A program made the translations under genes and the position numbers. The notes under the pieces are model-generated. The model was not told the origin of the DNA, searched no databases, and saw only the letters and a program-made list of their open reading frames with translations. Below are positions 3,212 to 56,400 of a stretch of 64,000 nucleotides of DNA, one piece after another (position 1 is the stretch's first letter; every line of letters starts with the position of its first letter). The DNA lies in contig JADEYG010000002.1 in assembly GCA_016906335.1 (NCBI GenBank), forward strand, positions 62,001-126,000, read 5' to 3'. Source of the stretch: Novakomyces olei. Lineage: Eukaryota.

Positions 3212-3327
3212 CAATACCAGAAAGAGACAAATACAATGGGAAAAGCAAGATAAACCATACAACTCAATATCACAAAAGGGTGCATCCGTTGTAAGTTCAA
3301 TCACAATTGATCCAAAGAAAAGGATTG
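3212..3327 (+). pseudogene. 116-bp pol fragment of element B between the D and A insertions
   Basis: Near-identical to A 5502-5617 and continues at 8955 after the GATTG duplication. Confidence 0.9.
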
Positions 3328-3621
3328 TGTTAGGAGTGTAGATAATAAATAATTAAACATTGAATTACTTAAAGGGTCCTAAACGTGTACGGATTAAATC
3401 TGGAACCTCGGCATTTGATTAATAATTAATCACGCCATAGCGGAAGCTGACTCATGATTAGTCAAGGCTGACTCATAATTAATCACGCCATTTCGGGCTT
3501 TCGGACAATGGATTATTAATCCATTACAGGAGTCTATAATAAGGACACGGTTTCCCATAGTTTAGAACATAGTTTTTTCTATCTTTTAATTTATTTGTTA
3601 CAACAGTGAGTTACCCTCACA
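3328..3621 (+). repeat. 5' LTR of element A
   Basis: TGTTAGG...CCTCACA, direct repeat of 8661-8954. Confidence 0.97.
3448..3475 (+). promoter_or_regulatory. Cluster of AP-1/YAP-type bZIP sites in LTR A
   Basis: TGACTCA 3448-3454, TTAGTCA 3458-3464 and TGACTCA 3469-3475, upstream of the TATA-like motif at 3535. Confidence 0.55.
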
Positions 3622-4318
3622 CATTTTTTCACTGCTAACTAGGACAGTGACTCCCCCGTCTGGACAACGCCGACGGATTTACCCTCACGTTTTCTCTGAG
3701 CCTTTTGCAAATCTTTTGCGTCAGGCGAAAACTGATCCTCCTAAGGATAAGGTGTTGACTGGATATTGCCGTCAATACCCGGAGTCCAAGGAGCGAAAAC
3801 AAAACTCTGAGTCTGGACCTGCCGACCAGAGTGTTCGACCCTCTTCCAGCTTGACTCTTCAGCTGTCGAAGAGAAGAGAAAGAAACGCTCGCCGTTCAGA
3901 GGCCTTCAAGGAGCGTAAGAGAATTGAAACGGTTTCTAAACCATTTGCAACACCTCGTCCGAAACCACTTCCAACCCCGATTCCGGCCCCGCTTCCGAAA
4001 CCAGTTCCAGCACCAGTTCCAGCACCAGTTCCAAGATTACCGCTTACGGAGGAAGAAATATTTCGAAAAGAAGCTCATTGGACAAGCAAGGTTGCGGCTC
4101 AAATCAAATACGAGGACACCTACAATAATCTTGTGGCCAAAAGAATACAGGAACTGAGCAGGAAAAAAAAAACTAAGTATTTGCTTGACAACATCGTTGA
4201 GGACGAATACAGAATCCGTCTTTTTAAAGGAGAGGATCCAGACAAAGTTGAAAAGGACTACTACGAACATTTGGAACAAGGACGACAAAAGCCATCCTAT
4301 CTTAATACGCTTTTTTAA
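3605..4318 (+). CDS. Accessory ORF0 of element A, 223 aa, unknown function; join(3605,3648..4318)
   Basis: Open frame with no internal Met, homologous to 15319..16029 in C. Basic motif KRRERNARRSEAFKERKR, Pro-rich linker, conserved C-terminal domain. Confidence 0.85.
   Translation, partial: SELPSHIFSLLTRTVTPPSGQRRRIYPHVFSEPFANLLRQAKTDPPKDKVLTGYCRQYPESKERKQNSESGPADQSVRPSSSLTLQLSKRRERNARRSEAFKERKRIETVSKPFATPRPKPLPTPIPAPLPKPVPAPVPAPVPRLPLTEEEIFRKEAHWTSKVAAQIKYEDTYNNLVAKRIQELSRKKKTKYLLDNIVEDEYRIRLFKGEDPDKVEKDYYEHLEQGRQKPSYLNTLF
3606..3647 (+). other. Predicted 42-nt spliceosomal intron spanning the LTR end and PBS region of A
   Basis: Donor GTGAGT 3606-3611, branch GCTAAC 3634-3639, acceptor CAG 3645-3647. 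Removal gives CAAC-A|TG-ACT-CCC, in frame with ORF0. Confidence 0.8.
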
Positions 4319-4389
4319 ACTAGCTCATTAATTTAACTCAAATTTATTAATCTACTTTATTCATAAAATTAATTTAATTTTAATTAATT

Positions 4390-7300
4390 ATGGATTTTAA
4401 GATTAAATTACCTGAGCCTACGAAATTGAATGGTCGCCCAATGACCCATAGAGAGTTCCAGTCATGGAGACACTCTATGGTAAAATGGCTCGCCTATGTC
4501 AAGACAGGCGAACATCCTATTGCTATTTCAGATGTCGACTTGATTAGCATGTTTCTCGAATCAAATGCTTCGATCTATGCTGAGGAGCTCCGTGACAATA
4601 CTTCTCTCACAGCAAATCAAATGCTTGATCACCTTGAGAGAAGCATTGTTCCGAACGATTATCTACCTCGTGCATACAGCAAGTTTGTCACCTTCACTCA
4701 GGGCACAAGAAGCATTAGCCAATATGCAACGCAGCTTAAGCTCAAATCAATGGAACTTGAGATAGTCAACGAGGCAATCTTGATTCAACAATTCATACAT
4801 GGATTAAATGAAAGAACCAAACCTCAAATAATGGGATCATTGAGAAGTGCATTTGGAACTCAATCCGGTGATAGTTCGAACATGGTCAAATGGAATTGGC
4901 AAAACGTTGTTGATGTGGCTACAGGTTATGACTTTGCGACAGCAAGACCCTTTGTTGGAAATATGAGTACGAAAGCAGCCAGTCAGAGAACAGAGGCACG
5001 AGCTGATGTTCCTGAAAAGAGTGAACCAGAGAAACCTATTCTCCGAACAAGATGTACTTTTTGTCGCAGAACTGGGCACACCTACGAGCAATGTTTCAAA
5101 AGAAAGAATCAGTCAAGTGTGAGTGCTCTTCAAACAAGCACAGAAATAGATAGCGAAGAAATAAAACTTGAGTATCACTGTTCCGCTGTCCAAAATACCG
5201 GTCAACAATTTCTTGTAGTCCTACCAATTGATATAAACGGTAAAGAAATAAAATGTCAAATACTTATTGACACCGGGAGTGACCTTGACGTTATTGATTC
5301 GAACTTCTGCAATGTTCACCGACCAAAATACTATGAAAGTGACCATAAAATTGAAATGGCATTTCAAGGATCAAGAACTATTAGCCGACACATGGCAAGA
5401 ATACGATTTAAGGGATATGAGTTGAATTGCGCAGTGGCAAGACTGAGAACCTCTGACCTTCTCATCGGAATGGGAACACTAAGCAAACTTGGAGCAATTG
5501 TCAATACCAGAAAGAGACAAATACAATGGAAAAAACAAGATAAACCATACGATTCAATATCACAAAAGGGGGCAGCCGTTGTAAGTTCAATCACAATTGA
5601 TCCAAAGAAAAGGATTGATGTTCAGTCAGTTCGAGAACAAGACACAATTGACTCAAATAAGGTACTGGAAGTGCTACAAGACAAGTTCAAGCAAACTTTG
5701 GTAGCAAGTCCACCAAGCAAATTGCCTATAATGAGACCAGTGGTTGCAACATACGAGCCGATCGACCCACACAAGAAGTACAATATCAAAAAGTGGTATC
5801 CAAGCAAGAAGCTAATGATGCCCTTAAAACTGAAAATTGATGAACTTCTACACGCCAAAATGATATCAATTTCTACAGAAGAGCCAAGTGCCATATTATT
5901 TCCTATTCCTAAAGACAAGGACATGGTCAACAAGCTCACAGATCCAAAAGAAATCAAGAATTATCTGCGATTTGTCAATGACGCTAGACCTCGGAATGCG
6001 AACATGAAACGCTTTTACATTCAGGTTCCTCGCATTGACATTGTAGTTCAAGATATTGCCAGAGCAAAATACAGAACTAAGATTGACTTGAAGGACGCTT
6101 TCTTTCAATCTAGAATACAGCCTGGGCAAGAACATTATACGGCATTTTGGACGCCATTTGGAATATACCAATGGAATGTGATGCCACAAGGAGATCGAAA
6201 CTCTACTGCTATACAACAGCAGCTTATGGAGGAATTATTCAGACCCTACATTGGCATTTGGATGACAGTATATGTTGACGACATCATCATATACGATGAC
6301 GATGTCCAGGAACACTTGGATCACCTAGTGATTGTCTTTGGAATAATGTCTAAATGGGAACTATACGCTAGTCCAGCCAAGACCTTTCCATTCTGCAAAA
6401 GCTTTGTGGTACTAGGCAGACAGATCAGTGATGAAGGAATCAAAATGACTGAAAAATCAAGAAACTCCATACTACGACTAGAAACTCCAAAGAACATGAA
6501 ACAAATACAGAGACTGGTGGGCATGCTAAACTGGATTTCAACGTTCATACCCAATTTATCGTCACACATCTCAACATTCACTGAAATGAAGGAGTTTTCC
6601 TGGGATGAAACTAAGCAGAAAGGATTTGACAAAATAAAGTCTGCAGTTCAGCAAGACATAATACTCAAGCCATTTAACCCAGAGCCTCTGAACAATGGAA
6701 CAGAGAAATTATTCATGGGAATAGATGCCTCTCTGGTGGGCACTGGAGGTTGGCTAGGTCAAGGAAAAGAATGGCAAACATGCAGAATAATTGGGTTTAC
6801 CTCTAAGAAACTTGGAATAGCAGAATCCCACTATCCAGTTCACGAACTTGAATATCTAGCATGCATCAGAGCATTGGAGCATTTCGAAATATATGCTAGA
6901 GGATATCAGGTAAATTGTTTGACAGACAATAAAGCATTAAGTCGTCTTTTTTACTCGAAGAACGTTATGCTGTCGCGACGTCATCTACGATGGATGGATT
7001 TTTTGAATGAATTTGACATCAATATTATACACGTGCCAGGAACACTTAACGTCTTAGCAGACTTATTGTCACGCTCTCATTCACACTCAAAGGTCGCTGG
7101 AATCTCTATTGAACAAACCCCAAATACAGATATAGATGTAGAGATACACAATCTCTATCTAAAGGATACATATTGGGCAGAAATACTTGCAATATTGAAA
7201 AGCAACGAAGAAAATCCAGATACCGAAAAACTTAAATCAAGATATTGTCTCAAAGATAATCTCATTCACCTCAAATTTGATGACCGAATCTGTATTCCTT

Positions 7301-14939: not shown

Positions 14940-15299
14940 TGTTAGGCCATAGTGTAGATAGTAAAAATAAAATTAAAAATGACATAATTAAATTAAATTA
15001 ATTCACTCCAAATAGGGAATTTAACCGATTTGGAGGAATATTTAATTACTAATCATTAAATCAAGCCACTGATCGGGTATCTGTATCTTATCAATGATAA
15101 GGTGATTACTAATTGATCGGTTACTTCTGATCCTATCTGATTACTAATTGATAGGAAAGTCTTGATCCTATCTCTTGGCAAATTACGAAGATAAGAGCTG
15201 AGCCTTGAAGTCTATAAAAGGACAAGGTTTTCCATAGTTTAAGGGTAGATTTAATTAATCTAAAAGTTATAACAGTGAGTAATTTCCACAGTTATAACA
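14940..15299 (+). repeat. 5' LTR of element C
   Basis: TGTTAGG...GTTATAACA, TATAAAAG at 15213, direct repeat of 20370-20729. Confidence 0.97.
15046..15147 (+). promoter_or_regulatory. Three YAP/Pap1-type response elements in LTR C
   Basis: TTACTAA at 15046-15052, 15106-15112 and 15141-15147, upstream of the TATA box. Confidence 0.5.
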
Positions 15300-53468: not shown

Positions 53469-56400
53469 ATGACGAGCCAAAGCGATATGAAAGGCTTACA
53501 GCTTTTCATCACGGATTTGCGCAATTCAAAATCCCGAGACGCGGAGGAGCGGCGCATCAATACGGAACTCGCGAAAATGCGAGCAAAATTCAAAGACGCA
53601 AAACTAGACGCGTACCAGAGACGAAAATACATTTGCAAGGTAGCCCTGTCTTCATTTAACTAATTATGCTGACGTCGTAGCTGCTGTATATCTATATACT
53701 GGGATGGCCAATTACATTCGGACATTTGGAAGCTGTAAATATGCTCAATAGCAATACTTATAGTGAAAAACAGATCGGCTATCTCGCAGTTACGCTGCTG
53801 TTAAATGAGCGCAGCGATCTGACGAATTTAGTGGTCAATTCTATTCAAAAGGATTTGAACAGTAACAACGATGTTTTTAATTGTTTAGCCTTGCACGCCA
53901 TCGCCAACATCGGCAGCCGGGAGATGGCGGAAACTCTGGCACCTACAGTTCAATCGCTGCTAATATCTCCGTATGCATTAAAAAGAAAAAATTTGTGGCA
54001 AAAGTTTGGCAGAGATTTTGGAAGAGGCTGTCATATTGTTTATTTTAAATTTTTGATTTCATTTAATACATTCTTATTATATACATTTTGTTTGATCAGT
54101 TTTCGCTAACACAACAGAACTTCCGAGACGTTCGTAATGAAAAAGGCAGCCTTAACACTTTTACGGCTGCACCGCAAGTTTTCTGACGTGGTGCAAGTAC
54201 AATGGGCCGAGCGTATAATTCCCTTGATGGACCATCCGGACCTTGGAGTAACGCTCTCTGTAACCACTTTAGTGTTGGCTCTGGTACATGAAAATCGAGC
54301 AGCTTATGCTGCGAGCTATTCTCGTGCCTTGAATCGTTTGAATCGTATTGTTGTGGGCAAAGTGTACGATTCAGATTCTCTTTATTATAAAATTCCATCG
54401 CCCTGGCTACAAGTCAAATTGCTCCGAATATTACAATGCTATCCTGCCCCGACTGATCCGTCACTGCGAAACACATTAACTAAAGTCTTGGAGACCCTGT
54501 TTGGCATGTACCGTACCAACGTGCATAATGTACAGCAAAACAATGCATTAAATGCTATTTTTATTGAGGCCATTAACGTGGCTATGCTGTTATCAGAGGA
54601 TGATATTGTAAGGAAAGCAGGATCGCTTTTGGGACATTTCATTTCGTCCAAGGAAACAAACATTCGATACCTTGGCTTGGAAGGAATGGTGCGACTTGCT
54701 TCCGTTCCTCAATTGGATAAAGTATTTAGAGTACATGAACAATTGATTCTCGCTTCTCTACGAGATCGAGATGTGAGTATAAGAAGGAAAGCTTTGGACG
54801 TTGCTTTTAGTATTTGTAATGCTTCAAATGCCAAATTAATTGTTCACGAATTGGTGACATTGCTTTCCGTCACTGAAAAGTCGGCACGCGATGACATTGC
54901 TGTCAAAGTGGCTATACTGACAGAGTCGTTTGCCACCGATCCAAAATGGTAAAAACAATTATGTTCAAAATTATTTAAATGACGTTATTTTTAACAATTT
55001 AGGTACATTGACATTATGCTTTCCTTAATAATTGTGGCTGGCGATCATATCCCGGAGGAAATGTGGCAGCGTGTTGTCCAAATTGTTATGAGTAACGAAG
55101 AGCTTGAGCCTTATACGGCGACTTCCATTATGCGGCTGCTTCGTCGGGATATTGCACATGAGTATATAATAAAAATTGGGGGTTATGTGCTCGGTGAGTT
55201 TGGCCATTTAGTAGCAGGCGAGCCAGGGTGCTCACCGGAAGAGCAGTTTGATACATTGAACTCAAAATTTGGGATCTGTAGCAATGCTACCCGCGCCCTT
55301 CTGCTTTCCACATACCTGAAGTTTTATAATTTGTTCCCAGAGATTCGGTCTAGGGTTAGGGCCGTACTCGTTGAGCATACGAGGTCAATCGAACCAGAGC
55401 TGCAGCAACGAGCTTGCGAATACTTGGCCCTGTTAAAGCTAGGTGATGATGATCTTTTACGGGCAGTCTGTGAGGAAATGCCAGCTTACCCGAAAAAGCA
55501 GTCAGCTTTAATTTTGCGATTACAGGGCAGTACTGCTGGCAATGGAACTAGCAACGAAAATGGAGCTTTCAGCGGCAGTAGTACGTCCACTGAAGAATTC
55601 ATGAAACGTTCCAGTCTTGGTGCTACTTCTTTTGACAGGAAAAAGAGTCTGTCCCAGAAAAGAGCGTCCAAACTTTTCCTTGAAAACCTTGAACGGGCAT
55701 CACCTAAAAAGGCGGAAAGCAATGGAGGGTTGTCTGACCTGGGCTTCGGGTTAAGTCCGGGGCTTAAAGCGAACGGAGAATTTACAATTTCGTCCCCCTC
55801 AAAATTACCGTTAAATCCGAGCAATCAATCTGAAAACAACAATGCCTATAATAAAAACAAAGGCAATAATGCTATTGTCGGTGCATCGAGTCCGAGTATC
55901 CTAAACGATCTCGTCGGACTTGACCTGACTTCTCCGTCAAGCACCCAGAGCCCCATTCCAGCAACAGTGTCCCAGCAGCTCTCGAGCAAATGGGAAATCG
56001 GGTTCAAAAGGCTCCTGACTCGATCAGATGGGATTCTTTTCCAGGACGATCAGATTCGGATCGGTATCAGATCAAACTACAATGGCTGCAACGGCGAAAT
56101 GGAAATTTTCCTGAAAAATATGACGGGATCACGCTATACTTCCCTGGCAATTGAGACACTTTCTGGCAATAATAATAACAAATCTAATTACGGAGCAGAC
56201 GCCGTAGTGATTGCACAAAATATACCCTCAACAATTTTAGAGCCAAATGGATCTCAAGCCCAATCGTTTTCCATAACGGCAAAGACGGCAATTGCGGAAT
56301 CGCCACTCGTTAGAGTCTCTTATATAGCAGGCTCCTTTCAAGCCGTATTGCTCCGTCTCCCAATAACCCTGCACAAATTCCTGCAACCCGTAATGTCGCG

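Follow-up and report, generated by a model that had tools for sequence, protein, structure and literature searches.

In rice tungro bacilliform virus (RTBV) and the badnaviruses, open reading frames (ORFs) I and II contain no internal AUG codon, and ribosomes scan across approximately 900 nucleotides (nt) to reach the AUG of the polyprotein. The RTBV ORF I itself starts at AUU; the RTBV protein P4 is translated from a spliced RNA in which a short ORF of the leader, with its own AUG, is fused to ORF IV (both according to the accessible text of PMC5902531, as is the scanning distance). In Cer1, a Ty3/gypsy element of Caenorhabditis elegans, the protein CERV is translated from a spliced mRNA and is needed to export the unspliced genomic RNA; it comprises 517 amino acids (aa), is encoded by five exons and takes its AUG and N-terminus from gag (as described in the accessible part of PMC10309623). 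Elements of the Tf1/Tj1 type prime their own reverse transcription by means of an 11-nt complementarity between the 5' terminus of the mRNA and the primer-binding site (accessible parts of PMC4600332 and PMC10085805), and plant long terminal repeat (LTR) retrotransposons may harbor extra conserved ORFs (aORFs), some of which are expressed from spliced RNA (accessible part of PMC7264820). Here, we describe two LTR retrotransposons, referred to as elements A and C, that are found in a 64,000-nt stretch of DNA from Novakomyces olei (GenBank assembly GCA_016906335.1, contig JADEYG010000002.1, positions 62,001 to 126,000 of the forward strand; the whole stretch is referred to as the window). Ahead of gag-pol each of them carries a leader that is free of ATG in all plus-strand frames and that is largely occupied by an ORF without methionine (Met), called ORF0, for which a start codon would probably be created by splicing. 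Fungal LTR retrotransposons are usually described as consisting of gag-pol only.

A first-pass annotation of this DNA had claimed that ATG is missing from every plus-strand frame of both leaders and that the next ATG is in each case the start of gag-pol. Both statements hold: the direct count is zero in the 879 nt of A and zero in the 999 nt of C, and the flanking ATGs are found at 3508 and 4390 in A and at 15094 and 16096 in C, the second of each pair being the gag-pol start. The plus strand of the window contains 929 ATGs, i.e., one per 68.9 nt, and the two longest gaps between them are those of A (882 nt) and C (1002 nt), followed by a gap of 512 nt. For CAT, the reverse complement, no gap exceeds 549 nt. 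Because CAT is present 11 and 9 times within the two stretches, the absence of ATG is not a strand-symmetric effect of base composition. The composition-matched count that had been proposed as a check was run as dinucleotide-preserving shuffles (5000 per stretch) and places the absence beyond chance. The shuffled sequence of A contained on average 6.89 ATGs and was free of them in 1 of 5000 cases; for C the mean was 11.62 and none of the 5000 shuffles was ATG-free. At the density of gag-pol itself, with 98 ATGs over 4293 nt in one element and 103 over 4284 nt in the other, about 20−23 would be expected per leader stretch. The 14−16 ATGs given as the expectation in the first-pass annotation fall between these two controls, above the shuffles (7−12) and below the gag-pol density.

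The divergence of the two leaders, also noted at that stage, is borne out by ORF0, where A and C share 65% of the nucleotides (426/657) and, aligned from a conserved GTG codon, 58% of the residues (126/219). Synonymous sites are near saturation (proportion of synonymous differences, pS, 0.63), and this divergence argues that the ATG absences in A and C are largely independent. In simulations where 10% of the leader sites were substituted at random, 3.8−4.1 new ATGs arose on average and the leaders were still ATG-free in 1.4−1.9% of 3000 runs. The ATG-free state is almost certainly kept by selection.

The same avoidance is seen at the level of codons. At the density of gag-pol, ORF0 would contain 5.5−5.6 in-frame ATGs, and it contains none. 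Codons of the type NAY (Asn, Asp, His or Tyr) that stand before a codon starting with G never end in T in ORF0 (0/9) and always end in C (9/9; five in A and four in C), while T is the last base in 32 of the 59 other NAY codons of ORF0 (Fisher p = 0.0025) and in 100 of the 149 NAY codons that precede G in gag-pol (Fisher p = 8e-5). When the synonymous codons of ORF0 were permuted, or drawn from gag-pol usage, a mean of 2.0−2.7 out-of-frame ATGs was obtained, with none at all in 90−334 of 5000 trials per element. These comparisons support a view where ATG is avoided in ORF0 through the choice of codons as well as through the composition of the protein.

Measured from stop to stop, the open frame of ORF0 (3590−4318 in A, 15298−16029 in C) takes up most of the leader. 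All gaps in the alignment of the two copies are whole codons, and the identity at codon positions 1, 2 and 3 is 71%, 74% and 50%, respectively. The ratio of nonsynonymous to synonymous substitution (dN/dS, Nei-Gojobori) is 0.24 over the whole ORF and falls to 0.12 when just the last 93 aligned codons, at the C-terminal end, are taken, to be compared with 1.26−1.29 for the other two frames of the same nucleotide alignment. Judged from these patterns of substitution, ORF0 is a real gene under purifying selection. AlphaFold2 models made from two-sequence alignments are all-helical and of low confidence, with a predicted local distance difference test (pLDDT) score of 55.4 for the whole of ORF0 and 60.1 for the C-terminal 95 aa. 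They tentatively divide the predicted protein into a basic helix (KRRERNARRSEAFKERKR), a linker that is variable and rich in proline, and a C-terminal domain of ~95 aa that is conserved and helical. A run of ten A residues is found at 4163−4172 in ORF0 of A, where it codes for RKKKTK and where C has AGGAAGAAAACAAAA; this run is a possible slippage-prone site.

No relative of ORF0 was found in a search of 5.8 billion proteins (439 candidates of similar length and 1968 longer ones), and a profile of ORF0 gave no match among 1.84 billion representatives. Among metagenome contigs, 514 pattern matches to the ORF0 profile and 520 to a gag profile were obtained, none of which was confirmed, and the same applies to 78 pattern matches in viral contigs. 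In Pfam, at E values up to 10, ORF0 yielded two chance-level rows only; the best match among the sequences of the Protein Data Bank (PDB) had E = 0.47, the ESM Atlas gave no usable match, and no similarity to gag was seen. One plausible reason for this lack of matches is that gene calling never picks up an ORF that has no ATG. A relationship of the basic helix (3860−3915, residues ~72−90) to bZIP proteins was considered and rejected: compared with the basic region encoded by the host bZIP gene of the same window (39715−41052, minus strand) the helix was identical at 9 of 26 positions in BLASTP (E = 0.35, not significant), no Pfam bZIP match was obtained for ORF0 and no leucine zipper follows the helix.

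Sequence similarity among A, C and a third, truncated copy (B) starts at the TATA box. The ATGs found in the LTRs (3454 and 3508 in A, 15094 in C), which open frames of just 3−6 codons, are located upstream of the TATA boxes. With transcription starting downstream of the TATA box, the gag-pol ATG would be the first in the predicted unspliced transcript, after approximately 825−850 nt. The context of this ATG in A includes an A at −3 and a G at +4. The spacers that separate ORF0 from gag-pol in A and C are unalike in sequence and alike in length and composition. A stem, CCGUC...GACGG, is located inside the coding sequence of ORF0, 7−10 nt past its start; it is identical in A and C, hence shows no covariation, and is a candidate element for packaging, dimerization or enhancement of the start. 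The leaders as a whole fold more stably than shuffled sequences (z scores of −1.96 and −5.44, 20 shuffles each), and the idea of the leader as an unstructured scanning track was rejected on these grounds.

The signals that could supply ORF0 with a start codon are found where the 5' LTR ends. In each element a perfect GTGAGT donor within U5 (at 3606 in A and 15275 in C, and kept in the 3' LTR of B) is followed by a U-run, CTAAC and CAG, which together outline a candidate intron that takes the last 16 nt of U5 in A, or the last 25 nt in C, and in both cases 26 nt past the LTR. The distance from the branch A to CAG is 9 nt in both elements, while the bases between them differ. Searched on both strands of the window, the pattern GTRAGT..CTRAY..YAG (up to ~100 nt) has three matches, of which two are these candidate introns and the third is antisense, inside pol of A. 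Removal of the intron would join A3605 to T3648 and G3649 in A, and A15274 to T15326 and G15327 in C, such that in both elements an ATG is formed in the frame of ORF0, in one and the same good context, AAC ATG A (A at −3), at the point where conservation of the protein starts. A well-supported host intron of 54 nt, located at 54949−55002 between two adaptin segments, shows that the host processes short introns; it is the only well-supported one among six candidate host introns in the window, which are listed at 39−116 nt.

The donor region also contains the 7-nt motif CAGTGAG, which in both elements is complementary to a TTCACTG that immediately precedes the branch motif, and this pairing could regulate splicing. 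As a separate observation, CAGTG occurs both at the donor (ACA/GTGAGT) and at the acceptor (CAG/TG; the slash marks the splice site), with its complement CACTG between them (3604−3649 and 15273−15327); from the sequence, the middle CACTG block looks like a structural toggle that is able to pair with either splice site. A search downstream of the 5' LTR revealed no tRNA-type (TGG...) sequence or self-primer complement of at least 8 nt that A and C have in common. The primer-binding site would, by its expected position, be placed inside the intron.

Taken together, these data lead us to infer that ribosomes scan through the leader and that the leader is also spliced. The full-length, unspliced RNA would serve both as the genome and as the mRNA for gag-pol, and ribosomes would scan from the cap over ~0.85 kb until they reach the AUG of gag-pol. 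Because they must reach this AUG, selection is proposed to have rid R, U5, ORF0 and the spacer of AUG in each of the three frames. A start codon for ORF0 would arise in a second RNA only, from which the intron (42 nt in A, 51 nt in C), with the donor GTGAGT in U5 and the acceptor CAG 26 nt past the LTR, has been removed, so that A/UG is joined to an in-frame AUG. The spliced RNA would be translated to yield the ORF0 protein and, with the primer-binding site expected in the intron, would not be reverse-transcribed, and the intron would thereby be protected from loss in the progeny. That splicing builds the AUG of ORF0 and removes the primer-binding region, alongside the clearing of AUG, is in our judgment probable. 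Extended to a complete two-RNA, retrovirus-like program, where the basic, helical ORF0 protein has a role comparable to that of Rev or CERV and acts on genomic RNA that retains the intron (in export, translation or packaging) while the intron with the primer-binding site bars copying-back, the scheme becomes speculative and rather improbable.

The first-pass annotation had taken the ATG-free leader as support for a splice switch. The proposal is supported in part, by textbook signals at homologous sites, which yield an in-frame ATG in both elements; the missing ATGs would be accounted for equally well, without a splice, by a near-cognate start at the GTG of the unspliced RNA. Leaky scanning without splicing has to be considered, i.e., a scenario where ORF0 starts on the unspliced RNA at the GTG (3647 in A, 15325 in C) or at a CTG (3632, 15310), with a few ribosomes initiating at the near-cognate codon, similar to the AUU of RTBV ORF I, and the rest continuing to the gag-pol AUG, and where the motifs that resemble an intron have a primer-binding or structural role instead. 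We regard this scenario as possible and somewhat unlikely. Both codons are conserved and in frame, the GTG sits exactly where conservation of the protein starts, the conserved hairpin lies 7−10 nt beyond it, and the CAGTGAG/TTCACTG pairing is conserved as well. Hairpins behind weak start codons can enhance initiation. There is also a precedent in the non-AUG start of RTBV ORF I (accessible text of PMC5902531). However, the context of these codons is poor in C, where the unspliced GTG has U at −3, as does the CTG in both elements, and the scenario leaves unexplained the coincidence of donor, U-run, CTAAC and CAG with the A/TG junction, a pattern with only one other occurrence in 128 kb. The proposed scheme faces objections of its own. 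The candidate intron of A, at 42 nt, is short compared with the candidate host introns, of which only the one of 54 nt is well supported; the conserved, splice-like blocks could instead serve the priming of reverse transcription, by analogy with the self-priming duplexes of Tf1-type elements; and leader structure in excess of that of shuffled sequences would hinder linear scanning. Furthermore, the codon tests are modest for a single element (p about 0.02−0.07, with ~2−3 out-of-frame ATGs expected), and just two leaders, which are homologous, are at hand, the searches having yielded no third copy or relative.

The remaining alternatives dispense with scanning, or with selection, as the cause of the ATG-free state. 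Expression of gag-pol could be independent of the leader if a separate transcript started in the spacer, or if ribosomes entered there internally, in which case the absence of ATG would be a side effect of the composition of ORF0. The extreme A+T content of the spacers (8−13% G+C), with TATA-like runs, and the structure of the leaders beyond that of shuffles are compatible with this idea, yet it does not explain why ATG is avoided at synonymous sites (0/9 vs 100/149), why ATG is missing also from the non-coding R/U5 and spacer, or why a protein of 223−234 codons is free of Met in both copies where 5.5−5.6 ATGs are expected, and we consider it very unlikely. Even less credible is an explanation by chance or shared ancestry, where ORF0 is decaying or non-coding and the two leaders owe their lack of ATG to descent from a recent common ancestor. 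That just two homologous copies are available is in its favor, but a pS of 0.63 is near saturation, the coding signature is clear, with a frame that stays open across whole-codon indels, and neither the shuffles (zero ATG in 1/5000 and 0/5000) nor the simulated substitutions (1.4−1.9% of 3000 runs at 10%) readily yield a leader without ATG.

The three copies of the family (A, B and C) were delimited by self-comparison and from the LTR ends, and the features are collected in Table 1. On their sequence, A and C are two diverged, intact Ty3/gypsy chromoviruses (Metaviridae). Both have a pair of LTRs that start with TG and end in CA, both are flanked by a target-site duplication of 5 bp, and Pfam identifies the order gag, protease (PR), reverse transcriptase (RT), RNase H, integrase (IN) with a C-terminal chromodomain: Retrotrans_gag at residues 51−141 of gag-pol, gag-asp_proteas at 280−365 (below its cut-off), RVT_1 at 553−677, RT_RNaseH at 772−875, Integrase_H2C2 at 969−1027, rve at 1051−1143 (below its cut-off), SH3_Tf2-1 at 1263−1328 and Chromo at 1355−1414. 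A purine run (GGGGGAGGA) is located directly 5' of both 3' LTRs. From the TATA box through the end of pol A and C are 73% identical, and dN/dS of gag-pol is 0.047. In a large protein database, 32 relatives of gag-pol were found at E ≤ 1e-20, the best of which is 33% identical; none is close enough for a comparison of leaders. Element A sits inside copy B, which it splits (target duplication GATTG). Copy B is devoid of everything 5' of the point that matches position 5502 of A, approximately 70 nt (matching 5623−5689 of A) are gone from it at the junction, and its 3' LTR (11944−12227) is just 87% identical to the LTR of A.

Table 1. Features of elements A and C and of the other retroelement sequences in the window
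Feature	Position	Strand	Description
Element A	3328−8954	+	294-nt LTRs, TG...CA; target-site duplication GATTG at 3323−3327 and 8955−8959
5' LTR of A	3328−3621	+	294 nt, TG...CA ends
ATG-free stretch of A	3511−4389	+	from the end of U3 through R, U5, the region after the LTR and ORF0 to the spacer
TATA box of A	3535−3542	+	
Candidate intron of A	3606−3647	+	42 nt; GTGAGT, U-run, CTAAC, CAG; prediction
ORF0 of A	3647−4318	+	GTG codon to TAA (4316−4318); 223 codons, no Met
Conserved hairpin CCGUC...GACGG	3656−3676 (A), 15331−15351 (C)	+	7−10 nt past ORF0 start; in A, 10 nt from the first base of the start codon
Spacer of A, ORF0 to gag-pol	4319−4389	+	71 nt, 13% G+C, no ATG
gag-pol of A	4390−8685	+	1431 aa; gag, CCHC, PR, RT, RNase H, IN, chromodomain
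3' LTR of A	8661−8954	+	polypurine tract just upstream
Copy B	3212−3327 and 8973−12227		same family, 97% identical to A; older, 5'-truncated
Element C	14940−20729	+	360-nt LTRs; target-site duplication CCTGG
5' LTR of C	14940−15299	+	360 nt; last LTR ATG at 15094
ATG-free stretch of C	15097−16095	+	leader region of C
TATA box of C	15213−15219	+	
Candidate intron of C	15275−15325	+	51 nt; same signals as in A; prediction
ORF0 of C	15325−16029	+	GTG codon to TAG; 234 codons, no Met
Spacer of C, ORF0 to gag-pol	16030−16095	+	66 nt, 8% G+C, no ATG
gag-pol of C	16096−20382	+	1428 aa; domains as in A, including CCHC
3' LTR of C	20370−20729	+	at least the first 300 nt 100% identical to 5' LTR
Element D, other Ty3/gypsy	1−3213	−	overlapping separate frames, gag 2594−1632, pol 1785−1
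Two open frames between B and C	12358−14200		second frame with weak Ty1/copia RT match (RVT_2, just below its cut-off)

The window also contains a second type of Ty3/gypsy element, D, with a leader of ~350 nt in which one upstream ATG (2741) is found right after a run of 25 A residues; it opens an upstream ORF of nine codons, and the gag ATG is at 2588. Consequently, not every leader in the window is ATG-free. The two open frames between B and C probably represent a degraded copia-type fragment. The rest of the window consists largely of intron-free genes of the fungal type (MDM31/32, a CAAX protease, bZIP, adaptin); the host genome is fungus-like and intron-poor.

The findings bear on the question of how a single retroelement RNA is shared among translation, packaging and an accessory function. 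If the proposed scheme is correct, the AUG-clearing strategy of the badnaviruses has also evolved in an LTR retrotransposon, where the start of the accessory gene is solved differently, by an AUG that exists only after splicing. The elements would then offer a testable model both for how far ribosomes scan in a fungus and for how an intron is protected against loss by reverse transcription. ORF0 is in addition a new orphan retroelement protein that, having no ATG, is invisible to gene callers, which suggests that similar ATG-less genes may be systematically missed in annotations.

Compared with other retroelements, A and C combine features that are found separately elsewhere. They share with the chromoviruses of the Tf1/sushi type (Tf1, Tf2 and Tj1) the domain order gag-PR-RT-RNase H-IN-chromodomain, a single gag-pol ORF (in this case with Tf1/Tf2), 5-bp target duplications and a Pfam match to SH3_Tf2-1. 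As far as the accessible accounts of Tf1/sushi elements go, these have short leaders without an extra ORF, unlike A and C, and LTR ends reported as TGTCA...TGACA, from which those of A and C differ. An assignment of A and C to the self-priming group is not supported, as only the 7-nt CAGTGAG/TTCACTG pairing is shared. The aORFs of plant elements lie for the most part in the interval from pol to the 3' LTR, on either the sense or the antisense strand, and an AUG-free upstream ORF is not described in the accessible part of that source. In the open-access papers that were searched, taken without supplements, we found no LTR retrotransposon whose upstream gene is cleared of AUG or whose start codon is built by splicing.

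Cer1, to the extent that it is described in the accessible text, resembles the arrangement proposed for A and C in that a spliced mRNA gives rise to an accessory protein and the unspliced RNA is used for gag-pol and packaging. ORF0 differs from CERV in that it is located wholly upstream of gag, is ~223−234 aa long and has no detectable similarity to anything. Its predicted basic helix would fit a nuclear or RNA-binding factor, as expected by comparison with Rev, Rex and CERV, while membership of this group is not indicated by sequence, as no match for ORF0 was found in Pfam, PDB, the ESM Atlas or the protein databases.

The nearest working analogue is leaky scanning in tungroviruses and badnaviruses, as exemplified by RTBV ORFs I and II. 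Like A and C, these are reverse-transcribing agents with an AUG-cleared accessory ORF upstream of the polyprotein, and their hallmark, a long upstream ORF free of AUG in all frames, is found here with a count of zero in 879 and 999 nt. A relationship between ORF0 and the RTBV proteins P1 and P2 did not turn up in library searches, which did not include a direct comparison. Unlike A and C, RTBV and the badnaviruses are episomal plant pararetroviruses that have no LTRs or integrase and whose ORF I is reached by shunting; with their LTRs and integrase, A and C fall outside the Caulimoviridae as a taxon. In addition, the RTBV splice feeds a distal ORF by linking it to a short leader ORF that already has an AUG, whereas in A and C the AUG is predicted to be assembled across the splice junction and to serve the upstream ORF. 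By analogy, the two leaders are best read as the product, in a fungal chromovirus, of a badnavirus-like clearing of AUG from an accessory gene that lies upstream.

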